The notes below the pieces were generated by a model. That model had not been told where the DNA came from. It saw only the letters and a list, made by a program, of their open reading frames with translations, and made no database searches. A stretch of 64,000 nt of DNA from Escherichia phage EcNP1. Below are positions 685 through 43,898 of this stretch, one piece after another. How positions within the stretch are numbered: the first letter of the stretch is position 1; every line of letters starts with the position of its first letter. The stretch is taken from sequence record NC_054910.1. One strand, 5' to 3'. Position numbers and translations under genes: made by a program.

Positions 685-2489
685 TGAAACAAAATATTAA
701 TATCGGTAATGTTGTTGATGATGGTACCGGTGACTACCTGCGTAAAGGTGGTATAAAAATAAATGAAAACTTTGATGAACTTTATTATGAACTTGGTGAT
801 GGAGATGTTCCATATTCAGCCGGTGCCTGGAAAACTTATAATGCTTCATCTGGACAAACACTAACGGCAGAATGGGGAAAATCATATGCCATTAATACTT
901 CGTCTGGAAGAGTAACTCTACAACTTCCTAAAGGAACTGTTAATGATTACAACAAGGTAATTAGAGCTAGAGACGTATTCGCTACATGGAACATCAATCC
1001 AGTTACTTTAGTAGCTGCTTCCGGAGATACAATTAAAGGGTCGTCATCATCGGTTGAAATTAATGTTCAATTTAGTGATTTAGAGTTAGTTTATTGCGCT
1101 CCAGGACGTTGGGAATATGTCAAAAACAAACAAATTGACAAAATTGTTAGTTCAGATATTAGTAATGTAGCTCGCAAAGAATTTTTAGTCGAAGTTCAAG
1201 GACAAACAGACTTTTTAGATGTTTTTCATGGAACTAGTTATAATGTCAATAACATCAGAGTAAAACATCGTGGTAACGAATTATATTACGGCGATGTATT
1301 TAGTGAAAACAGTGACTTTGGCTCTCCAGGGGAAAATGAAGGAGAACTAATTCCTCTCGATGGATTTAATATTAGACTAAGACAGCCATGTAATATTGGT
1401 GACACCGTTCAAATTGAAACATTTATGGATGGTGTATCACAATGGAGAAGTTCATATACAAGACGCCAAATAAAAGTACTAGATTCAAAACTAACATCAA
1501 AGACTTCATTAGAAGGAAGTATTTACGTTACTGATTTATCGGCGATGAAATCAATTCCATTTTCTGCATTTGGATTAATTCCTGGTGAACCCATTAATCC
1601 TAACTCTCTTGAGGTTCGTTTTAATGGAATTTTACAGCAGCAGGCTGGAACAGCTGGATATCCTCTGTTTTTGTGTGAAGGCGCTAGTTCAGATACACAA
1701 GAAGGATGTATATCTCTTGGTGGCGAATGGAAAGAATCAAACACAGATTATTCTATAGAATATGAAGATGGAAAACCTACCAGTCTTTTATTTGATAGAA
1801 AATTTGAATCAGGTGATATAATCGTTATAACGTGGTTCAATAATGATTTAGGAACTCTTTTAGAAAAAGATGACATCATTGAATTGACTGATGACCGTTA
1901 TGTTAGTAAAGGATCATCTACTGAAGTTACTGGTGATGTAGCCTTAACGGATTTTGATAAAATCGGTTGGCCAAATGTTGAAAAAGTTGATTCTTATACT
2001 AGAACGTATAATTCAATATCATCTATTTTCGATAGCATTTATCCTGTAGGTTCAATTTATGAAAATGCTATAAATCCAAATAATCCGGTGACTTATATGG
2101 GATTTGGTTCATGGAAATTATTTGGTAAAGGACAAGTTTTAGTAGGATGGAATGATGATGTTACGGATCCAAACTTTGCTTTAAACAATAATGATTTAGA
2201 TTCTAGCGGAAATCCTTCACATACTGCCGGTGGAACAGTTGGAACAACAACGGTGACACTTGAAAACGCAAATCTTCCTGCAACTAAAACCGACGAAAGA
2301 GTTTTAATTGAAGACGAAAATGGATCGGTTATTATTGGGGGTTGCCAATATGACCCAGATGAAACTGGTCCTATATATACAAAATACCGTGAAGATTACG
2401 CAACAACAAACTCTTCACATACTCCTCCTGCTAATATTAGTAATATTCAACCGTCTATTACTGTATACCGTTGGATAAGGATTGCATAA
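684..2489 (+). CDS. 10: Baseplate wedge subunit and tail pin gp10
   Basis: 601-aa ORF; ATG overlaps gp9 stop (TAATG); length and sequence match T4 gp10 as recalled; synteny 9-10-11-12. Confidence 0.93.
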
Positions 2490-3148: not shown

Positions 3149-4695
3149 GTAACAATACATATCAGCACGTATCAAATGAATCAAAATATGTTAAATTCGA
3201 TCCTACTGGATCGAATTTTCCTAACACTGTTACGACAGTGCAGTCTGCATTATCAAAAATAAGTAATATCGGCGTAAATGGTATTCCTGATGCAACTATG
3301 GAAGTTAAAGGAATAGCAATGATTGCGTCAGAACAAGAGGTTTTAGATGGAACTAATAATTCTAAAATCGTTACGCCAGCTACATTAGCAACAAGGTTAT
3401 TATACCCAAATGCTACTGAAACTAAATATGGTTTAACGCGTTATTCAACAAATGAAGAAACGTTAGAAGGCTCAGATAATAATTCATCAATAACGCCGCA
3501 AAAACTGAAATACCATACTGACGATGTGTTCCAAAATAGATATTCGTCTGAGTCATCAAACGGGGTTATTAAAATATCATCTACACCTGCAGCTTTGGCC
3601 GGCGTAGATGATACTACGGCAATGACTCCATTAAAAACCCAAAAACTTGCAATAAAATTAATTTCACAAATAGCTCCGTCAGAAGACACTGCAACAGAAT
3701 CGGTGAGAGGAGTAGTTCAATTATCTACTGTTGCGCAAACTCGTCAAGGAACTCTCCGCGAAGGATATGCAATTTCCCCGTATACCTTTATGAATTCTGT
3801 TGCAACAGATGAATATAGGGGTGTTATACGTTTAGGAACACAGACTGAAATTAATAATAATTTGGGGGGTGTTGCAGTAACAGGTGAAACACTAAATGGT
3901 CGAGGAGCTACCGGTTCTATGCGTGGAGTAGTTAAATTAACGACGCAAGCCGGTATTGCCCCTGAAGGTGATAGTTCTGGAGCATTAGCATGGAACGCAG
4001 ATGTAATTAATACTCGTGGTGGACAAACTATTAATGGTTCTTTAAATTTAGACCATCTTACAGCAAACGGAATTTGGTCGCGTGGTGGAATGTGGAAAAA
4101 TGGCGATCAACCTGTTGCCACTGAAAGATATGCGTCCGAAAGAATTCCAGTTGGGACTATTATGATGTTTGCAGGTGATTCAGCACCTCCAGGTTGGTCT
4201 ATGTGTCACGGTGGAACCGTGTCAGGTGACCAATTTCCTGATTATAGAAACGTAGTTGGAACAAGATTTGGTGGTGATTGGAATAATCCTGGTATTCCTG
4301 ATATGCGAGGTCTTTTCGTCAGAGGAGCCGGCACAGGCGGTCATATTTTAAATCAACGAGGACAAGATGGTTATGGAAAGGATAGACTTGGCGTAGGATG
4401 TGACGGAATGCATGTTGGTGGTGTCCAGGCACAACAAATGTCATACCATAAACACGCCGGTGGTTGGGGAGAATATAACAGAAGTGAAGGCCCATTTGGC
4501 GCGTCAGTTTATCAAGGATATCTTGGAACTAGAAAATATTCCGACTGGGATAATGCTTCATACTTCACTAATGATGGATTTGAATTAGGTGGACCGAGAG
4601 ATGCTCATGGTACACTTAATCGTGAAGGATTAATTGGTTATGAAACTAGACCATGGAATATATCATTAAACTATATTATTAAAGTTCATTACTAA
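3145..4695 (+). CDS. 12: Short tail fiber protein gp12
   Basis: 516-aa ORF; ATG overlaps gp11 stop (ATGA); position and sequence match T4 gp12 as recalled. Confidence 0.93.
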
Positions 4696-4704
4696 GGATT
4701 ACAA

Positions 4705-6162
4705 ATGATTGAATTAAAAGAGTTACCTTTTGTTGATAGCGTTCCTGACGAAGGTCAGGAACGTATTTCATGGATTAAAAATGGTGAAGAAATATTAGGA
4801 GCTAGTACTAAGTATGGAAATGATGGATCAATGAATAGACCAATTGTTTCCGTGTTTAAAAACGTCGAAGTTCTTGATGAAAATGTGGGAATTCTTAAAA
4901 CTGCCATTGAAACATCACAGAAAGATATTAAAACAATTCAAGGAGTTTTAGATGTATCAGGAGATATAGAAGCACTATCGCAGATCAGTGTTAATAAAAA
5001 TGACATATCGAATTTAAAGACACTTACTAGTGAACACACTGATATATTAACTGGAACTAATAATACAGTTGACAAAATTATTGCTGATATAGGTCCATTT
5101 AATGATGAAGAAAACTCTGTTTATAGAACAATTAGAAATGATTTACTGTGGATTAAACAGGAATTAGGACAATATTCTGGCCAAGACATTAACGGTCTTC
5201 CTGTTGTTGGTAATGCTAGCACAGGAATGAAACACAGAATAATAACAAATAGTACATTATTATCTTCACAAGGCATTCGTTTAAGCGAATTAGAAAATAA
5301 ATTTACTGAATCTGACGTAGGATCATTGACTGTTGAAGTTGGTAAATTACGTGATGAACTTGGTAATAAACCGGTAGATTTTGGACCAAATATTTATAAT
5401 AGATTAAACACTATAGATGATAAACAAACTTTAATAAATTCTGATATAGCAGAAATTAAATCTTCTATTGGATACCCAGAAAATGTTTCTATAATAACAG
5501 AAATTAATAATAACAAAAGTAGCATTGAAGCTATTAATAATGAATTAAATCAGAGTGAAGGTGTTAAACAACGCTTAACGGCTATTGAAACTTCTATCGG
5601 TTCAGATGATATTCCTTCTAGTATTAAAGGAAAAATTAAAAATCACACAACTTCTATTGAGTCTTTAAACGGAATTGTTGGTGAAAACACTTCGTCTGGT
5701 TTAAGAGCGAATGTTTCGTGGTTAAATCAAATTGTTGGAACTGACTCCAGCGGAGGACAACCGTCTCCTTCTGGATCTCTATTAAATAAAGTTTCAGTGC
5801 TTGAAGGAGAAGTTTCAGTTTTAAACAATAATGTTCAAAATATACAAGTTGAAATAGGAAATAATAGAACAGGAATTAAAGGTCAAGTTATTGAACTTAC
5901 TTCACTTATAAATGGAAATAATCCTGACGGATCAACTGTTGAAGAACGAGGATTAACTAATTCTGTAAAAACGAATGAAACCAACATTGCGGCAGTTACA
6001 CATGAAGTAAATACAGCTAAAGACAATATATCCTCTTTACAGAGCAGCGTTCAAGCTCTACAAGAAGCAGGTTATATTCCTGAAGCTCCAAAAGATGGCC
6101 AAGCTTACGTTCGTAAAGACGGCGAATGGGTACTACTTTCTACCTTTTTATCACCAGCATAA
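4705..6162 (+). CDS. wac: Fibritin (whisker/neck fibre)
   Basis: 485 aa; long heptad-repeat-like region; C-terminal foldon [27 protein letters not shown] read directly. Confidence 0.95.
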
Positions 6163-7936: not shown

Positions 7937-11077
<3,141 letters not shown>

Positions 11078-38549: not shown

Positions 38550-38738
38550 TTAATAATCTAGTGGTAAGAGAGTACGGTATATTTCAAACTTCGGACCTTT
38601 TTCATAGGCATCAAATGTTTCTGTAAATTTATTATAAGCATATGCATCTACAAATTCAAGAACGATTTGTGATACAGAAGTAGAAACATCTCCACCTTCT
38701 TTTTGAGCAACGACAATTGTTTCTAAGTAAGCTTTCAT
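38550..38738 (-). CDS. Small acidic hypothetical protein
   Basis: 62-aa ORF; its start overlaps the gene 30 stop; a hairpin overlaps its own stop. Confidence 0.55.
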   Translation of the reverse strand: MKAYLETIVVAQKEGGDVSTSVSQIVLEFVDAYAYNKFTETFDAYEKGPKFEIYRTLLPLDY

Positions 38739-40195
38739 AGACCAGTTACCTCATGAAAATCACCAAATACATCCTCGAATGTATTAGCTTTAGTTTTATC
38801 TTCACGTAAACGAATCGCAATTGGAAGAAATAATTTAACGTAATCAGTGCGGCCATCAGATTTTAACCAACCATTGCATTCGCACTCTAGAATTTTTCCA
38901 ATATAATAATTTTGGTTTTCCATAATGCGAGTACGGTCAAGTTCATGTGATTTTACACCAGCTTTATCTTTTAAACCTGAACCAGCGTTTACTTTAATTT
39001 TTCCGCATTCTGATTCAAGAATAAATCCACCTGCTTTAGTAGGGTCTTTACGGTGAGGATAAATTCCTACAATTTTTAAATCAACATCAATTACTTCTTT
39101 AAATTTATAGAGATTTTTTGAACGAGCATTTTCCCACAATCCATCGGTATTTTTGAGAATAATACCTTCAAGACCTCGGTCAATATATTTTTTATAAATT
39201 ACCTTAGCTTCATCTAGGTTATTTACTACCTGGTTTTCAATTAAAATTACTTTATCATATCCTGATGTCATTTGTTCTAGTTTAGAAAAACGTACATCAT
39301 ATTTTAAACGAAACGCCGGAAGACCGTATATTTCTACCAACGGGACATAATCCCAGACCTGAAACTTCATGCATTTGGCTTCTTTTTCAGAAATGGTTCC
39401 CTTTAAAGATTTATTGGCAATTCCATTAGAAGCAGTACGAGATTCAGCTACTTCGGCAAACTCTTTAGCTTTACTGATTTCAGGAGCATCAAAAAGAAAA
39501 TCTAGGCCTTCTGGTTCCTTTTCAACTTGCTCATGGTATACTAATTCGCCATCAATTAACACACCTTCTGGATGAATCTGGCGGGCTTCAGCAGTCATTT
39601 TGATTAACTCTTCCTTAAGAAGATCTAATCCTAGATATTCATTACCAGCTCGCGATAAAAGACGAACATCATCTAATTCATCGCCTCGGACTTCAGCAAA
39701 ACACCGAGCTCCATCTGCTTTTAACTGCGCAAAAGCTGGAAACTTGATATTCTTACTAATGCCTTTTTCATCATAAGAACTTGCCAGCATTTGAGGTTGT
39801 TCAGGAATTAAACCTGGCCAAACTTTGTTTGCAATAGATACTGAAGCACCACATTCAAGGTCTCGCATCATAACTCGACGCAAAACTTCAACATCATCCT
39901 TTTTACCATCGGTGATATATCCAGTTAATTCCTCAATTGCTGCATTGCCAGTTAATTTCCGAGTAGCTAACGTGAATTCAATGAAGTCAAGCATATCGGT
40001 AATAGTCAGCATTCCAAAACTCTGGGTAGCAATACCAGGTTTAGGCCATTTCTTGATATAATACTGTAACCCACGAGAATAAGTCAGACGATATACTCGT
40101 TTAAGCAATTCATTATCTTTATTCTTTTCAAGAATTGCTTGCTTCTGCTTAGTTGATCCGATAGATGCTATTTCATTCAGAATTTTAAGAATCAT
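38735..40195 (-). CDS. 30: ATP-dependent DNA ligase gp30
   Basis: 486 aa; adenylation motif KADG (AQLKADGARCF); near-identical to T4 DNA ligase as recalled. Confidence 0.96.
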   Translation of the reverse strand: MILKILNEIASIGSTKQKQAILEKNKDNELLKRVYRLTYSRGLQYYIKKWPKPGIATQSFGMLTITDMLDFIEFTLATRKLTGNAAIEELTGYITDGKKDDVEVLRRVMMRDLECGASVSIANKVWPGLIPEQPQMLASSYDEKGISKNIKFPAFAQLKADGARCFAEVRGDELDDVRLLSRAGNEYLGLDLLKEELIKMTAEARQIHPEGVLIDGELVYHEQVEKEPEGLDFLFDAPEISKAKEFAEVAESRTASNGIANKSLKGTISEKEAKCMKFQVWDYVPLVEIYGLPAFRLKYDVRFSKLEQMTSGYDKVILIENQVVNNLDEAKVIYKKYIDRGLEGIILKNTDGLWENARSKNLYKFKEVIDVDLKIVGIYPHRKDPTKAGGFILESECGKIKVNAGSGLKDKAGVKSHELDRTRIMENQNYYIGKILECECNGWLKSDGRTDYVKLFLPIAIRLREDKTKANTFEDVFGDFHEVTGL

Positions 40196-40461
40196 TGCTC
40201 ATCCTTCAAGGTTTGGTTTACAGCTCTATTATAAATCAATTCATCATTAAGCTCAGGCAAAGACTTATGATATGTAGTTCTAACTTTATTTCCTTGCATC
40301 CAGTGCTTGACGTAAATGAAACCTTGCTCTACACATTTTTTAAAAATTCGTTCGTCTTTTTGAGCTCGAAATTCTGGATTGCATCTAAAAAATTGATTTA
40401 CGTGACCGTAATCACGTGTAGTATTACCTTCATTTTCATAAATAGTGTGAACGACAAACAT
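40192..40461 (-). CDS. Hypothetical protein (30.x cluster)
   Basis: 89-aa ORF, ATGA-coupled to gene 30; same strand as the cluster. Confidence 0.65.
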   Translation of the reverse strand: MFVVHTIYENEGNTTRDYGHVNQFFRCNPEFRAQKDERIFKKCVEQGFIYVKHWMQGNKVRTTYHKSLPELNDELIYNRAVNQTLKDEQ

Positions 40462-41300
40462 TAGAATGCTCCTTGAAAAATATTATCACCACTAGTAGGT
40501 CTATTATACAAATACTCTATGCCACCAGGTTTAATATAGTTCCATGTCTGAAACGGATGTGTCTGATATGGATGATATAGATGATTATAAGGATTTAATC
40601 CAAGCGTTCTCCAGGTAGTGTTCCAAGGAAAAGAATCGTTTTTAACCATCTTCTCAATTAAATCTTTTATAGCTTTTTCACTATCAAAACTTTCTTTATT
40701 TTCCTTCGGCGAAAAAAGCTTATTTTCTACATCATTCCATGTATAAACTCGCTGCGCAGTTTTTGGAATATTGTCACGCTCTCCTCGAGCCATCCAATAA
40801 ACTGGAACATTTAATATTTCACTCGCATGATCGCAGTGATGAGCGAGATCGTCAATATAACAAATTACGTTATATTTCTCTTTTGCCTTTTTGAACAGCT
40901 CTTCTTTTGAAGAATCATGACCACACATCATTACTTCTGAGAAGGCACCGGGAAAAAGAGCATTCAAATTAAATTGACGATTCAACAGAGCGTCAATAGA
41001 ATCACCCAATGCTGTAACAGCTACAAAATTATAATCTTCTTTTAATTTGTTAATTACACACAGGGCATCTTTATACGGAGACAAGTAACGAATAAAATCT
41101 GAACGATTGTATTTTTCAATTAACTTGACGCCAAGTTCTTCGTCACAATTAAAGAGTTTACCTGGAGAAATAAATTTCTCATCTTGGATCATTTTTAAAA
41201 TATGTTCTAATGGAAGATTATATTTTTGAGCAAAATAAGGAAGGCCTGATTGCCAGCTTAAACAAACTCCATCAATATCAGTTAAAATAGTTGGCTTCAT
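40461..41300 (-). CDS. HAD-superfamily hydrolase-like protein (30.x cluster)
   Basis: 279-aa ORF; N-terminal ILTDIDGV (HAD motif I, DxDG) and later ICYIDD (motif IV-like). Confidence 0.75.
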   Translation of the reverse strand: MKPTILTDIDGVCLSWQSGLPYFAQKYNLPLEHILKMIQDEKFISPGKLFNCDEELGVKLIEKYNRSDFIRYLSPYKDALCVINKLKEDYNFVAVTALGDSIDALLNRQFNLNALFPGAFSEVMMCGHDSSKEELFKKAKEKYNVICYIDDLAHHCDHASEILNVPVYWMARGERDNIPKTAQRVYTWNDVENKLFSPKENKESFDSEKAIKDLIEKMVKNDSFPWNTTWRTLGLNPYNHLYHPYQTHPFQTWNYIKPGGIEYLYNRPTSGDNIFQGAF

Positions 41301-41761
41301 AGAGAGTCTCTTAATAGGTTTAACACATCAATAAATTCAGCTTCGGTTAGTATTGTATCATCTTTTGTTAGACCACTAGCCATGCTGTGCTTCAAAACTT
41401 TTCCTTTCGAGGCTTGTAATGCATCACGAAAGCCCCTGTTTTGGATCGCTGCTTCAAAATATGCATTTGTGTATAATTCTTTCCATGCTGGAGAGTATCT
41501 TGAAAATGGAACTCCAAGCCAGAACAACGTGCCACGGTCCTGAGCTCTAGCATAAGCTCGTCCAGCTTTTTGCGCGTCCAATCCGGACATCCCAAATATA
41601 CGTCTTTGCTGTTCAACATTTTTCACCTTACATCCTTGGAGGAATCCTTCGAGACCTCCAAATTGGATACCATCCATAACGAAAGGCCATTGGGCGAAAT
41701 TGCTTAATGCACATGATGGCCATCTAAAATTGCTTCTAATCTCTAGCTCAGACATTTTCAA
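41297..41761 (-). CDS. Hypothetical protein (30.x cluster)
   Basis: 154-aa ORF, ATGA-coupled to neighbours. Confidence 0.7.
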   Translation of the reverse strand: MKMSELEIRSNFRWPSCALSNFAQWPFVMDGIQFGGLEGFLQGCKVKNVEQQRRIFGMSGLDAQKAGRAYARAQDRGTLFWLGVPFSRYSPAWKELYTNAYFEAAIQNRGFRDALQASKGKVLKHSMASGLTKDDTILTEAEFIDVLNLLRDSL

Positions 41762-41954
41762 TACTTATAATTTCAACATCAGCCCAATGACCATAGCAAG
41801 GAAGACGAAATTCAATTGGCCAGTTAGGGTCCTTTTCTAATATAATAGACTTAACTTGCGGTTCTTCATGTTCATCGGTATACGGACCTTTATATGTTAC
41901 TTTATATGTAACCTTAATGTACTGAATTCCAAAAATCTTATTAATTATATTCAT
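41748..41954 (-). CDS. Hypothetical protein (30.x cluster)
   Basis: 68-aa ORF, overlaps neighbours at both ends. Confidence 0.55.
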   Translation of the reverse strand: MNIINKIFGIQYIKVTYKVTYKGPYTDEHEEPQVKSIILEKDPNWPIEFRLPCYGHWADVEIISIENV

Positions 41955-42148
41955 ACTAATTCCTTTAATCCATAGATAGGAGATAATTCATCACCCATAC
42001 GAAGGTCTTCATTTCCATCTACCCAGGAAACAATATAAGCTTCTTTTATTTGAACGTCTCTCCATTTAAATGGAGGTAGAACCTTAGAAATTAATCCAGG
42101 TATACCGACTCCCTTTAATTCAACAGTTTGACCTAAAAAGAATTTCAT
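41951..42148 (-). CDS. Hypothetical protein (30.x cluster)
   Basis: 65-aa ORF in coupled series. Confidence 0.55.
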   Translation of the reverse strand: MKFFLGQTVELKGVGIPGLISKVLPPFKWRDVQIKEAYIVSWVDGNEDLRMGDELSPIYGLKELV

Positions 42149-42429
42149 TAGAACCTCATCTGAAAACCGTGCGATTTAACATTACCGCCGCCAATGTCAG
42201 AAATGTTAATTTCACGCGCAATTGAAGGGTCAATGTCAATTTCACGATTGAGTTTAGTGATAGCTAGAGTATCACGCCCATTTACAGTACGGAACTCTAA
42301 GGGGCAGACTACATTGACGTAGTTTTTAATCGATTCACTGGTAGGTTGCAAATGAGCAGGAAGGTCTTTAGGCGCCTTAGAGAAAACTACTTCACAGAAA
42401 TTTTTGCGGGTATCAAAATAAGTAGTCAT
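42148..42429 (-). CDS. Hypothetical protein (30.x cluster)
   Basis: 93 aa from ATG at 42429; the track start at 42486 is TTG and would run through an intergenic hairpin. Start uncertain. Confidence 0.5.
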   Translation of the reverse strand: MTTYFDTRKNFCEVVFSKAPKDLPAHLQPTSESIKNYVNVVCPLEFRTVNGRDTLAITKLNREIDIDPSIAREINISDIGGGNVKSHGFQMRF

Positions 42430-42475
42430 AAACACAGTATTTTCCTCAGTAAGGGGCCGAAGCCCCTGTTTTATT

Positions 42476-42841
42476 TTAAATATCAAATTCGTTAAGAACT
42501 ACATCAAAGATTGCTTCAAGATGCTCAGGTTTAGCTCTGTTACTCAGAATATGACGAATCCAAGTTTTAACCAGAAGCTTACGATTAACGCCGTTCCAGC
42601 AAGGATGGGTACCTAAATCACGTTGACGAAAATCATCATCTAATGCGATTTTAAAAGAAGAACCTTCTTTCGTGATTGAAACCGTGATGCCATTTTCAAA
42701 TCGCATATAAACGTAATTAGGAGTCATATACTGTTCAATTTCGCATACTGATCCATTTTGATGTTTCCAAAGGCAGATAGTATCAATAGAACCTGCAATA
42801 CCATTAGAAACATATTTACGTTCAAAGTTGATGTAGTTCAT
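42476..42841 (-). CDS. Hypothetical protein (30.x cluster)
   Basis: 121-aa ORF, same strand as the cluster. Confidence 0.6.
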   Translation of the reverse strand: MNYINFERKYVSNGIAGSIDTICLWKHQNGSVCEIEQYMTPNYVYMRFENGITVSITKEGSSFKIALDDDFRQRDLGTHPCWNGVNRKLLVKTWIRHILSNRAKPEHLEAIFDVVLNEFDI

Positions 42842-42909
42842 TTTTATTCTCCGAGATGTTTAATTGCGGTACAGGTATATAATATCATATCCTGTACCAA
42901 AGTAAACAA

Positions 42910-43242
42910 TTATTTTACTACTTTCCAGTGCTGCATGTCAAGTTTGCCAACTTTTTTCATCTTCTCAATTAAGCGTTCTGCACGTTGGCGAGCTGTAACA
43001 TAATACCATTCACCTAATTCATTTTGTTCAATTTTTCCAACGATTACTGTATTCAATTCATAAATCCAACCGGTAAAGAAATTATGAACTTGAATTGTAA
43101 AGGTGAAATCTGTTCCCATACCTTCTGTTGTTTCTACTTCAATAATATCACCTTCAACTGCCATTAAGAACCACATAGTTTCGTTATATTCACCATTGAA
43201 ACATTTAGCTTTAACCGCAGCGTTCAGATTAATCGTTTTCAT
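42910..43242 (-). CDS. Hypothetical protein (30.x cluster)
   Basis: 110-aa ORF, same strand as the cluster. Confidence 0.6.
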   Translation of the reverse strand: MKTINLNAAVKAKCFNGEYNETMWFLMAVEGDIIEVETTEGMGTDFTFTIQVHNFFTGWIYELNTVIVGKIEQNELGEWYYVTARQRAERLIEKMKKVGKLDMQHWKVVK

Positions 43243-43317
43243 TTTATTCTCCTTTGTTTGTGTAAGATAATATTATCACAAAGGAACCATACTGTAAACA
43301 ACTTTGTGCAATCTTTG

Positions 43318-43346
43318 GAAAATAAAAAAGGACTCCCGAAGGAGTC
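43318..43346 (-). terminator. Intrinsic terminator downstream of the basic small ORF
   Basis: Minus strand hairpin GGACTCC-TTCG-GGAGTCC then TTTTTTATTTT. Confidence 0.75.
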
Positions 43347-43352
43347 CTCAAC

Positions 43353-43529
43353 TTATGCTTTCTGCTTACCAAAACGAGAAGCATCATCTCGAAGAACCGC
43401 ACGTGCTCGGCGCATGATCTTCTCAACAGTTTGATTGATACGAGAGTTCGACCCACGCTTGTAGCCAGCGCGTTTAGAATCACCAACTTTCTTTTCAACT
43501 GCTTTCTTTGCTTTAGCTTGTTTTGCCAT
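43353..43529 (-). CDS. Small highly basic protein (30.x cluster)
   Basis: 58 aa from ATG at 43529 (MAKQAKAKKAVEKKVGDSKRAGYKRG...); terminator hairpin plus T-run directly downstream. Confidence 0.55.
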   Translation of the reverse strand: MAKQAKAKKAVEKKVGDSKRAGYKRGSNSRINQTVEKIMRRARAVLRDDASRFGKQKA

Positions 43530-43649
43530 TATAAATTCTCTTTTAAATGAAAATGCAGGACTTATTGGCATTGCCTGCGCAAGCCCTCAAGGGGAACATA
43601 GGTTTTTGAATATTTAACGACCAGGATAACCATAAACCCGTCATCATAC

Positions 43650-43898
43650 TTACTTCAGTGTTACCACAAAGTGACGAACTGCTTTTCGTGCGGCAGAAGC
43701 CAAAGGCTTAGCATATTTAAGTTCATCTTTTTCCTGAAGCTCAGCAGCTAATGCAGTTTGAGCAGGATTCAGATGTTTGAAATAACGCAGGATTTCAAGA
43801 GCTTCGGCTTCAACATCAATAGATGCGCCATAGTTTTCGTGACCATTATTCCATGCGTTTCGTTGCAGTTCAAGAGCGTGTTGTAATTGTTTAATCAT
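43650..43898 (-). CDS. rIII: Lysis inhibition accessory protein rIII
   Basis: 82 aa, same length as T4 rIII; sequence as recalled. Confidence 0.9.
   Translation of the reverse strand: MIKQLQHALELQRNAWNNGHENYGASIDVEAEALEILRYFKHLNPAQTALAAELQEKDELKYAKPLASAARKAVRHFVVTLK

Follow-up and report, generated by a model that had tools for sequence, protein, structure and literature searches.

The window, a 64,000-nucleotide stretch of Escherichia phage EcNP1 (NC_054910.1), belongs to a Tequatrovirus, and the region between its DNA ligase and rIII genes is very probably its copy of the T4 gene block 30.1–30.9. We are equally confident that the nine genes are a real set of early accessory genes, individually dispensable, on the same strand as the DNA ligase gene and upstream of it. 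The island is not new, but a known T4-type block; the observation is real but ordinary.

A sequence-only reading had placed nine tightly packed minus-strand ORFs in the interval from DNA ligase to rIII, and the ORF list bears this out: the nine co-oriented genes encode 58–279 aa, with a coding fraction of 0.93 (Table 1). The ATGA/TAATG coupling it reported is seen at five junctions, with ATGA overlaps at 30.1/30, 30.3/30.2 and 30.5/30.4, and TAATG overlaps at 30.2/30.1 and 30.6/30.5. The 30.4/30.3 junction is an 8-nt overlap (ATGTCTGA), and gaps of 40, 68 and 110 nt lie ahead of 30.6, 30.7 and 30.8, respectively. The right-hand boundary had been placed at 43571, where an in-frame ATG further upstream would make 30.9 a 72-aa protein. 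In Mosigvirus and Dhakavirus the added stretch contains a 1-nt indel or a stop codon, and the conserved start is therefore 43529; the reported length of 58 aa stands.

Table 1. Features of the 30.1–30.9 region in the window and their identity to T4.
Feature	Position	Strand	Description	Identity to T4
DNA ligase (gene 30)	38735..40195	-	flanking gene	
30.1	40192..40461	-	89 aa; DUF3045; stop overlaps ligase start (ATGA)	96.6%
30.2	40461..41300	-	279 aa; predicted HAD-superfamily phosphatase	96.4%
30.3 (adfN)	41297..41755	-	predicted NADAR DNA ADP-ribosylglycohydrolase, anti-DarTG1	96.1%
30.3'	41392..41619	-	nested +1-frame ORF inside 30.3, 75 aa; Pfam DUF2883	72%
30.4	41748..41954	-	68 aa; acidic; conserved C-terminal motif LP.YGHWADVEIISI	92.6%
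30.5	41951..42148	-	65 aa; small beta-rich protein	95.4%
30.6	42148..42435	-	95 aa; GTG start	96.8%
Hairpin	42452..42467	-	stable UUCG-tetraloop hairpin AGGGGC-UUCG-GCCCCU in the 30.7–30.6 spacer; terminator scan and sequence reading	
30.7	42476..42841	-	121 aa; Pfam PF06919	96.7%
Putative promoter before 30.7	42879..42906	-	early-type sigma-70, TTTACT-16-TATTAT, upstream TG; consensus match	
30.8	42910..43242	-	110 aa; Pfam PF06019	96.4%
Putative promoter before 30.8	43270..43298	-	early-type sigma-70, TTTACA-17-TAATAT with TG; consensus match	
Intrinsic terminator after 30.9	43318..43349	-	GAGGACUCC-UUCG-GGAGUCCUU then UUUUUAUUUU; terminator scan	identical
30.9	43353..43529	-	58 aa	100% (aa and nt)
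Module A	43530..43640	-	conserved non-coding spacer between rIII and 30.9	
rIII	43650..43898		flanking gene	

In T4 (NC_000866, 127205-130540) the interval from gene 30 to rIII is filled by the same nine genes, with order and orientation unchanged. The ORFs share 92.6–100% aa identity with their T4 counterparts, and the nt identity is 95.0% with 4 gap columns. The gene overlaps are the same, and the nested 30.3' frame is also present in T4. The window differs in that its 30.2 is longer by one residue, its 30.6 begins with GTG instead of ATG, and it lacks a 124-nt non-coding insert located just after rIII in T4. Moreover, nt identity to T4 is 100% over 30.9 and the spacer upstream of it, and rIII has only two synonymous changes, whereas the neighbours of this patch show dS of 0.10-0.43; this near-zero divergence points to a recent exchange of the 30.9/spacer/rIII patch. 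The region has 99.7% nt identity to phage vB_EcoM_Nami. Each ORF has a PHROG family match, and for five there is also a Pfam family that was built from T4 30.x proteins. In HIDEN-SEQ of T4 on E. coli K-12, genes 30.1-30.9 were non-essential, with transposon insertions at 95-100% of TA sites; genes 30 and 31 were essential.

The proposal that the island is an uncharacterised place that may hide an undescribed function was not upheld, since each of its ORFs has a single counterpart among T4 30.1-30.9. The sequence-only reading had paired such conservation with a lack of anti-defence phenotypes; the conservation was found, but phenotypes of this kind have already been published.

AdfN and its neighbours 30.4 and 30.2

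The 30.3 product was inferred to be AdfN, with its activity transferred from the 96%-identical T4 protein on the basis of identity, intact length and catalytic residues. T4 30.3 (AdfN) counters the DarTG1 defence (PMC11825919, PMC11125620), and its log2FC on DarTG1 is -7.25 in HIDEN-SEQ Data S6. Experiments on the T4 protein showed that it strips from phage-DNA guanines the ADP-ribose attached by the bacterial toxin DarT1, which lets the phage replicate in DarTG1 hosts; the window's protein would do likewise. T4 gp30.3 is a phage NADAR enzyme, with the DarG1 antitoxin and E. coli YbiA among its relatives. The window's protein matches Pfam PF08010 (E 3e-69), and the best PDB match of its profile is YbiA (2b3w, E 0.0023). 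It is full length with an intact C-terminus and keeps E36, K43 and H123; E36 and K43 (both mutated in the published study), the phage-type histidine and the C-terminal helix are shared with T4 AdfN. None of the six substitutions relative to T4 (window residue, position, T4 residue: M56L, D60A, K63Q, A67S, R107K and M125I) is at a reported catalytic position, and the gene has no RB69-type frameshift. The N-terminal extension of the DarT1-linked DarG1 is missing from the protein, as it is from other phage NADARs (PMC11825919). Translation from the T4-type ATG gives 152 aa, and a TTG two codons upstream would give 154 aa. This ATG lies inside the end of 30.4, and 30.3 has no strong Shine-Dalgarno (SD) of its own. 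Homologues occur in 1509 phage records.

AdfN(T4) fails to rescue DarT1 toxicity without infection and protects non-T-even phages only partially; a T-even factor was postulated (PMC11825919). The acidic 30.4 protein is a candidate AdfN helper. It might be the T-even-specific factor required for full AdfN activity, the two genes then forming a two-gene anti-DarTG1 cassette; we consider this rather unlikely. Conditional essentiality on DarTG1 was seen for just two T4 genes: besides 30.3, the sole significant gene in the HIDEN-SEQ table is 30.4 (Data S6, log2FC -1.79, p 1e-4, Padj 0.014), which is unchanged (+0.36) in another Data S6 comparison. The 8-nt overlap, the joint presence of the two genes in four Tevenvirinae genera and their joint absence from two (Moonvirus and Jiaodavirus), where only a 160-183 nt gap separates 30.5 and 30.2, together with the failure of AdfN(T4) alone, also favour a cassette. 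However, 30.3 lacks a good SD and begins within the end of 30.4, to which it is translationally coupled; a transposon in 30.4 should by itself lower AdfN translation, which would explain the partial depletion. Adjacent genes are also expected to be lost jointly. Moreover, 30.4 is only 46-49% identical in other genera, whereas AdfN is 86-94% identical, and there is no 30.4-like ORF before the distant NADAR homologues of Acj9, FL04 and Matisse. The 30.4 signal on DarTG1 would reflect either broken translational coupling or the postulated T-even cofactor of AdfN.

The one HAD-like hydrolase named by the sequence-only reading is 30.2, for which catalytic motifs and the structural model agree. The protein looks like an active HAD phosphatase that carries a helical C1 cap, and in fold it comes closest to the 5'(3')-deoxyribonucleotidases, which makes a nucleotide or sugar-phosphate the most likely substrate. 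Residues 1 to ~195 form the HAD core with the C1 cap, followed by an aromatic-rich C-terminal tail (~200-279) of low model confidence. Among 31 homologues D8, D10, K132, D150 and D151 are invariant and T96 is nearly so. The four motifs (DxD, T, K, DD) are those of the C1-cap HAD phosphatases, especially 5'(3')-deoxyribonucleotidases (PDB 2jao, 2i7d, 1mh9, 3bwv), which also share the Rossmannoid core and a helical cap inserted after motif I. The AF2 model has a mean pLDDT of 82, with the core mostly above 90. Its Foldseek matches in the PDB reach probability 1.0 to HAD hydrolases, and the most compact are the deoxyribonucleotidases 3bwv, 2jao and 2i7d. The TM score (target-normalised) is 0.64-0.71 and the rmsd 4.0-4.9 Å, at a sequence identity of only 16-18%. 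Sequence-profile searches gave no Pfam, NCBIfam or PDB sequence model match, including the Pfam and NCBIfam models of HAD and NT5C. The ~80-residue tail is additional to the HAD phosphatases, and many relatives lack it.

A functional pair of 30.2 and AdfN, in which 30.2 is the missing helper and might for example dispose of released ADP-ribose, is very unlikely. Beyond the Tevenvirinae, 30.2 and 30.3 are the sole island genes still found beside the ligase (Acj9, Matisse), and they occur in similar numbers of phage records (1438 and 1509, respectively); however, T4 30.2 insertions were not depleted on DarTG1 (log2FC -0.12, p 0.61), and each gene is also found without the other: Moonvirus and Jiaodavirus have 30.2 but no 30.3, and Krischvirus has 30.3 but no 30.2.

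Gene content and selection among T4-like phages

Per-ORF presence and absence across T4-like genomes, a check which the sequence-only reading had proposed, gave a nearly fixed set within the genus and losses between genera. Its statement that the 30.x region varies between genomes is thus right for different genera; within Tequatrovirus, the present sequence comparison shows an essentially constant set of genes. By megablast the region was matched in 934 phage records, and 473 records cover at least 80% of it in one place. The single ORFs are at least 90% identical in ~390-830 phage records, compared with ~500 records having the ligase at 95% or more. Between genera, 30.1 is absent from Moonvirus, and 30.6 from Moonvirus CF1 and Mosigvirus SHSML-52-1; additional unrelated ORFs are inserted in the islands of Mosigvirus and Jiaodavirus. 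Genes 30.8, 30.4 and 30.1 also diverge far faster than their neighbours. These losses (including 30.3/30.4), insertions and fast divergence might suggest a hyper-variable island whose copy here may carry genes not seen in T4. We give this hardly any credence, since the window holds exactly the T4 set in T4 order with no additional ORF and the block recurs in the hundreds of records given above; the one-to-one T4 match rules it out for this window.

All nine ORFs are under purifying selection as estimated from dN/dS (0.04–0.39 overall; 0.04-0.27 in the T4 comparison, 0.06-0.39 in those with three other genera), which indicates real genes. That some are chance open frames, as the shortness of several (58-68 aa), the AT-rich DNA and the many spurious ORFs reported by scan tools might suggest, can practically be dismissed, because dN/dS is far below 1 for each ORF against up to four genera, the positions are conserved with hundreds of homologues per ORF, and only the nested 30.3' looks like chance among the frames examined. 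This tenth ORF is probably not a functional gene. It is less conserved than the host frame (72% against 96%), and a stop interrupts its Mosigvirus SHSML-52-1 copy. Conditioned on the protein sequence of 30.3 and on local codon usage, chance alone would leave this frame open with P ~0.19; requiring its ATG as well lowers P to ~0.14.

The remaining small genes and putative regulatory elements

T4 30.5 binds the host polyphosphate kinase (Ppk) and activates the bNACHT11 sensor (bioRxiv 10.1101/2024.12.17.629029). Ppk binding and bNACHT11 sensing are predicted for the window's 30.5 from this 95%-identical protein, also of 65 aa. The GIPG and WVDG motifs are conserved in both, whereas residues 30-32 are RDV here and SGI in T4. 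Homologues occur in 701 phage records. The view that such early genes hold host-takeover or anti-defence factors is borne out by T4 30.3 (anti-DarTG1) and T4 30.5 (Ppk binding, bNACHT11).

Apart from the HAD-like and the basic protein the island had been read as having no recognisable function; these two calls were right, whereas 30.3, a NADAR enzyme, had been missed. The basic protein is 30.9 (pI 11.4, K+R = 19/58 residues), which presumably binds nucleic acid or another polyanion. Its invariant core is SKRAGYKR..N.RI.Q...RAR.VL..DA, and it reaches 90% identity or more in 829 records and 99% or more in 494. 30.1 matches Pfam PF11243 (E 5.6e-63), with dN/dS of 0.05-0.39 and 924 phage records. 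30.6, with homologues in 720 records, has a GAGG SD with the GTG start 9 nt after it. 30.8 (homologues in 1037 records) is the fastest-diverging member across genera: its identity is 81% in Dhakavirus but falls to 38-43% in Moon-, Gapriver-, Mosig- and Jiaodavirus. The AF2 model of 30.7 has moderate confidence (pLDDT 67) and shows seven beta-strands followed by two helices; only ~25 half-identity clusters were found among 1.84 billion proteins. The structural search suggested by the sequence-only reading led to HAD phosphatases for 30.2, and for 30.7 Foldseek gave no PDB match at E below 0.1. Judged by their context, 30.1, 30.4, 30.6, 30.7, 30.8 and 30.9 are most likely host- or defence-directed binding proteins.

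From the sequence and the T4 literature, transcription would enter the island from upstream, be partly stopped at the terminator after 30.9, and restart at the early sigma-70-type promoters before 30.8 and 30.7. These promoters are putative, and the density of the promoter scan was not above that of shuffled sequence (18 found, 14.2±4.1 expected). The 30.7 promoter is overlapped by an inverted repeat (GGTACAGG/CCTGTACC, repeat finder) and followed by the SD CGGAGAAUAAAAAUG, and the 30.8 promoter by the SD AAGGAGAAUAAAAUG. The hairpin between 30.7 and 30.6 has no T-run after it on the sense strand and is terminator-like only on the plus strand. From 30.6 down to the ligase, translation would be tightly coupled via the ATGA, TAATG and ATGTCTGA overlaps. 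The GGAG SD of T4 30.7 is a documented RegB cleavage site (PMC9409239), and the GGAG sites of 30.7 and 30.8 here may be of the type cut by this nuclease. Module A, which includes the last 42 nt of the island as first delimited, gave no significant Rfam match; T4, Mosigvirus, Dhakavirus and Gaprivervirus carry it almost unchanged, although its reading frame is not kept.

Gene content of the island and its T4 counterparts

The interval between the DNA ligase gene and rIII holds nine co-oriented minus-strand ORFs, which encode, from the ligase side, proteins of 89, 279, 152, 68, 65, 95, 121, 110 and 58 aa. These ORFs correspond one-to-one, with the order kept, to genes 30.1-30.9 of the T4 reference annotation, and the same applies to the Escherichia phage vB_EcoM_Nami, which is 99.7% identical across the region. 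The nine proteins share 92.6-100% amino acid identity with the T4 proteins of the same rank over their full length (blastp), and at the nucleotide level the identity with T4 reaches 95.0% (four gap columns over 3.4 kb). Matches to the region came from 934 phage records, and in 473 of these at least 80% of its length was covered. The island is a set of orthologues of the already known T4 genes 30.1-30.9. The sequence-only reading had described it as uncharacterised and as a plausible place for an undescribed function, and had named one-to-one conservation with T4 30.1-30.9 among the observations that would speak against this; such conservation is what was found. Its view of the kind of region holds, whereas the uncharacterised status and the likely undescribed function do not. 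T4 annotations have listed these genes for decades, and the characterisation of both AdfN (the product of 30.3) and the Ppk-binding 30.5 dates from 2024-2026; the island therefore carries little weight as a discovery. Six of the nine genes are functionally blank, as they are in T4 itself, and are reasonable targets for a defence-panel screen.

Pfam searches gave matches for five ORFs to families that were built on the T4 30.x proteins (PF11243, PF08010, PF06919 and PF06019 among them), all of them T4-named or DUF families, and NCBIfam gave none for any ORF. Each ORF matched a PHROG family, and every one of these families is labelled 'unknown function'. The PADLOC defence-system models had no match among the nine ORFs. 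Several labels in the record of Nami (MZ502380), the closest relative, are evidently wrong: 30.9 is mis-annotated as a '1,4-alpha-glucan branching enzyme, GH-13-type', 31.1 and 31.2 are mislabelled 'tail fibers protein', and 30.7 is called DUF4314, whereas PF06919 alone scores here.

The ORF map agreed with the tight packing described earlier. The nine ORFs cover 93% of the interval. Five junctions overlap as ATGA or TAATG, 30.4 and 30.3 overlap by 8 nt (ATGTCTGA), and spacers (40, 68 and 110 nt) occur only at the three upstream junctions. The GC content (0.33-0.41) is unremarkable compared with the surroundings. The dN/dS ratio, calculated against T4 and three other Tevenvirinae genera, is 0.04-0.39 for every ORF, and each of the nine has homologues in hundreds of phage records. 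The nine ORFs are genes under purifying selection. HIDEN-SEQ, a published T4 transposon screen, found 30.1-30.9 all non-essential and genes 30 and 31 essential; by orthology, the nine genes would be dispensable on K-12 in the window phage, as was shown in T4.

The right end of the island had been placed at 43571, an in-frame ATG upstream that gives a 72-aa 30.9. This extension is out of frame or stopped in Mosigvirus and Dhakavirus, and the start of 30.9 is therefore assigned to the conserved position 43529 (58 aa). One further frame, the 30.3' of T4, was considered as an overlapping gene and rejected. Its identity with T4 is 72%, compared with 96% for the host frame 30.3; it contains a stop in the Mosigvirus SHSML-52-1; and the chance of its staying open given the 30.3 protein sequence is about P = 0.14-0.2. 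Thus, 30.3' behaves as a chance ORF and is probably not a gene.

Coordinates of the features discussed (positions in the window, unless another locus is named)
Feature	Position	Strand	Remark
DNA ligase (gene 30)	38735-40195	minus	
30.3' (T4 name; Pfam DUF2883), probable chance ORF	41392-41619	minus	nested in +1 frame of adfN, open in the window
30.4	41748-41954	minus	68 aa
30.6 start codon	42433-42435	minus	
UUCG-tetraloop hairpin	42452-42467		between 30.7 and 30.6
30.7	42476-42841	minus	121 aa
Patch nearly identical to T4	43353-43898		30.9, spacer and rIII
Conserved non-coding spacer	43530-43640	minus	rIII to 30.9
rIII	43650-43898		flank of island beyond 30.9
~137-nt element, locus L003	3396-3540		rIII-30.9 spacer
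~137-nt element, MN04 (L006)	~3606-3745		rIII-30.9 spacer
~137-nt element, locus L007	~2143-2280		rIII-30.9 spacer
~124-nt insert, T4 (L002)	~9660-9785		
adfN of SHSML-52-1 (L005)	5446-5904		

The ligase-flanking loci of nine other Straboviridae were searched with the nine island proteins. Genes 30.2, 30.5, 30.7, 30.8 and 30.9 were present in all six Tevenvirinae genera sampled; Moonvirus lacks 30.1, Moonvirus and Mosigvirus lack 30.6, and Moonvirus and Jiaodavirus lack both 30.3 and 30.4. Near the ligase outside the Tevenvirinae, 30.2 and 30.3 were the only island genes detected. The divergence is also mosaic; between Mosigvirus and the window, the identity is 94-97% for 30.3, 30.7 and 30.9, but 40% for 30.8, 49% for 30.4 and 63% for the ligase. 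The tblastn searches, which covered the whole database, returned 924, 1438, 1509, 706, 701, 720, 993, 1037 and 982 records for 30.1-30.9 in order, and 1762 for the ligase; where the ligase is at least 95% identical (roughly 500 records), each island gene almost always occurs with high identity as well. It follows from this genus-level presence and from the record counts that the window copy is a standard one, and that the island content varies between genera and not within the genus of T4. The 30.x region had been expected to differ between T-even genomes, and this is correct for comparisons between genera (losses of 30.1, 30.3/30.4 and 30.6) but not within T4's own genus.

The NADAR enzyme AdfN and the adjacent gene 30.4

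All ORFs except the HAD-like one and the small basic one had been regarded as having no recognisable function, which does not apply to 30.3. This gene encodes a NADAR enzyme with 96.1% identity over 152 aa to the characterised T4 AdfN. In T4, AdfN is necessary and sufficient for the T-even resistance to DarTG1, and RB69 is DarTG1-sensitive because a 1-nt insertion truncates its copy (PMC11825919); AdfN activity has also been reported in vitro (PMC11125620). The genome-wide screen HIDEN-SEQ (bioRxiv 10.1101/2025.11.20.689424) confirms that 30.3 can be dispensed with on K-12 and is lost on DarTG1.

The six differences between the window and T4 proteins are all at non-catalytic positions, and the catalytic E36 and K43 (T4 numbering) are present. 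E36 is invariant across six homologues, down to 33% identity, and aligns with the glutamate of the SEHYFQ motif of YbiA. The best PDB relative of the six-homologue profile is E. coli YbiA (2b3w), with the E36 motif aligned; a PDB search with the single 30.3 sequence gave no match. Phage NADARs have a histidine in place of Glu/Asp in the last strand (PMC11125620), and H123 (KVLKHS), also invariant in the alignment, may correspond to it, as judged from the sequence. The window AdfN is full length (152 aa, ending ...LNLLRDSL) with no frameshift, and the C-terminal helix lost in the inactive RB69 allele is intact. By orthology, the window AdfN would reverse the guanine ADP-ribosylation by DarT1, removing ADP-ribose from guanine in DNA, and would protect against DarTG1, an activity shown for the T4 allele only. 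The window phage is thus predicted to be DarTG1-resistant via its intact AdfN. An intact, full-length adfN (94% identical) was also found in SHSML-52-1, where it is missing from the RefSeq annotation; this phage should be DarTG1-resistant, unlike the congeneric RB69.

AdfN of T4 is fully effective only in a T-even infection, and a helper factor has been postulated (PMC11825919). In Data S6, the DarTG1 supplementary table of HIDEN-SEQ, two genes are significant genome-wide, namely 30.3 (log2FC -7.25) and 30.4 (log2FC -1.79, Padj 0.014); 30.4 is unchanged in another comparison of the same file. The conditional-essentiality section of the HIDEN-SEQ main text names 30.3 alone. Most simply, translational coupling is lost when a transposon inserts in 30.4, and the AdfN level falls. 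The 30.3 start is overlapped by 30.4 and lacks a convincing Shine-Dalgarno of its own. It is rather unlikely, in our estimation, that the 68-aa 30.4 is itself the T-even-specific factor for full AdfN activity, with 30.4-30.3 forming an anti-DarTG1 cassette gained and lost as a unit. Such a role would fit 30.4 being the sole other gene that is significant genome-wide on DarTG1 in the published T4 data and the joint presence or absence of 30.3 and 30.4 across the six genera; however, loss of coupling accounts equally well for the evidence on 30.4. No 30.4-like ORF was found upstream of distant NADAR homologues. As a partner or helper of AdfN, 30.2 was rejected, since T4 insertions in 30.2, as in the other island genes, are unchanged on DarTG1 (Data S6). 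For the question of a T-even potentiating factor, 30.4 is a modest and testable side-lead.

The predicted HAD phosphatase 30.2 and the remaining genes

The HAD-like assignment of 30.2, previously made by eye, was strengthened by conserved motifs and a confident structural model. HAD motifs I (DxD), II (T/S), III (K) and IV (DD) were all found; D8, D10, K132, D150 and D151 are invariant among 31 homologues (35-73% identity), and T96 is at least 90% conserved. The core of the AF2 model has a pLDDT mostly above 90, and the last ~80 residues are poorly modelled. A Foldseek search against the PDB gave 116 matches at E <=0.001, and those listed are all HAD-fold enzymes with a probability of 1.0. Because of the conserved motifs, the confident core and the HAD-only matches, 30.2 is predicted to be a catalytically intact C1-capped HAD phosphatase. 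The most compact superpositions (TM target 0.64-0.71) were with 5'(3')-deoxyribonucleotidases and a deoxyribonucleotidase-like protein, at 16-18% identity, whereas other HAD subfamilies are equal by E-value. The substrate would most likely be a nucleotide or a sugar phosphate. Curated models gave no Pfam match at E <=0.1, no NCBIfam match and no PDB sequence match for 30.2; PF00702 was sub-threshold in one homologue. According to the published transposon data, 30.2 is not needed against DarTG1. In one metagenomic homologue (P0015, 302 aa, a single cluster), the HAD core is fused in frame to a DUF3045 (30.1-like) domain, which replaces the T4-type C-terminal tail. This fusion is possibly a Rosetta-stone link between 30.2 and 30.1, or merely a lost stop at the TAATG junction.

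T4 has three redundant triggers of the bNACHT11 sensor, among them 30.5, which co-purifies with the host polyphosphate kinase (Ppk) (bioRxiv 10.1101/2024.12.17.629029). The window 30.5 is 95.4% identical to T4 30.5, with differences at residues 30-32. By orthology it would also bind Ppk and be sensed by bNACHT11, whereas binding of Ppk and of the SNaCT domain is a reported feature of T4 30.5 only; the window phage is thus predicted to be open to bNACHT11 sensing via 30.5.

In T4, the 30.7 transcript is cut by RegB at the GGAG of its Shine-Dalgarno (PMC9409239). A GGAG-containing Shine-Dalgarno precedes both 30.7 and 30.8 in the window, and by orthology RegB would cut that of 30.7. The AF2 model of 30.7, built from only 10 usable homologues (pLDDT 67, pTM 0.57), has seven strands and two helices, and Foldseek found nothing in the PDB below E 0.39. 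The 30.7 family is tiny and phage-restricted, with about 25 phage-sized relatives in an exhaustive HMMER profile search of 1.84 billion proteins. Residues ~15-63 of the profile also matched a unit of ~48 residues, present in 5-19 copies in four giant proteins of 1332-4516 aa, where PKD-, Ig- or fascin-type repeats surround the units. At about 8 bits per unit, homology to these repeats was judged too weak and was rejected; the matches are hints, too weak to call, that the N-terminal sheet may derive from an Ig-like or beta-repeat ancestor.

PDB searches with six-genus profiles of 30.1, 30.5, 30.8 and 30.9 produced only noise (E >=0.19), and the word-indexed search for 30.8 homologues yielded 6 sequences, too few for structure prediction. 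Literature searches on 30.1, 30.2, 30.4 and 30.6-30.9 yielded, as functional information, only the 30.7 RegB site and the citation of a 2003 study on the expression of rIII and 30.9; the main text of the CRISPRi-ART paper has no mention of the island genes. 30.9 may bind a polyanion, and host- or defence-directed roles are conceivable for 30.1, 30.4 and 30.6-30.8.

Expression signals and the rIII-30.9 spacer

A terminator is present after 30.9. Two early promoters are putative, being consensus matches that are no denser here than in shuffled sequence. The 30.6 start codon is GTG in the window and ATG in T4; the next ATG lies two codons downstream, and a GAGG Shine-Dalgarno is found 9 nt ahead of the GTG. 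The UUCG-tetraloop hairpin has a T-run on the plus (antisense) strand only. Its sense-strand role may be to stabilise the mRNA or mark it for processing, rather than to terminate transcription.

Between rIII and 30.9 lie about 100 nt of non-coding sequence (…ATGATGACGGGTTTATGGTTATCCTGGTCGTTAAATATTCAAAAACCTATGTTCCCCTTGAGGGCTTGCGCAGGCAATGCCAATAAGTCCTGCAT…) that are nearly identical in T4, Mosigvirus, Dhakavirus and Gaprivervirus; the reading frame is not preserved across those genera. Moonvirus and Jiaodavirus have GGGAGC…GCTCCC in place of the GCAGG…CCTGC hairpin of this spacer. The spacer may be a regulatory RNA or a promoter element for 30.9. Rfam gave no known RNA family for the island and the spacer; the only matches were below the gathering score, over a terminator or promoter hairpin.

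In other genera, the rIII-30.9 spacer contains an element of about 137 nt (CGGCAAGTGCATGCTACCCCGAGGCGATGGCC…CAACAGATAAGAG), GC-rich and without annotation, which is not in the window or T4. It is single-copy in 403 phage records and at least 90% identical in 384 of the 403. These are Klebsiella, Escherichia, Enterobacter and Yersinia phages, and the flanking proteins are 40-76% identical to those of the window. The element had no Rfam or tRNA match, and its MFE z-score is -0.56; one compensatory pair was found (TATACA/TGTATA vs TATATA/TATATA). An additional non-coding insert of ~124 nt, which includes an AT-rich hairpin (TAATGATT-TGCG-AATCATTA), is found in T4 and the Dhakavirus MN04; on the coding strand, it directly follows the rIII stop. 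This insert is missing from the window and Nami. The rIII-30.9 spacer is therefore mosaic, assembled from at least three portable non-coding modules.

The nucleotide identity with T4 is 100% for 30.9 and the spacer, and in rIII the only differences are two synonymous changes; the dS is 0.10-0.43 in the adjacent genes 30.8-30.1. This patch reflects either descent from a very recent common ancestor or an exchange with a T4-type genome.
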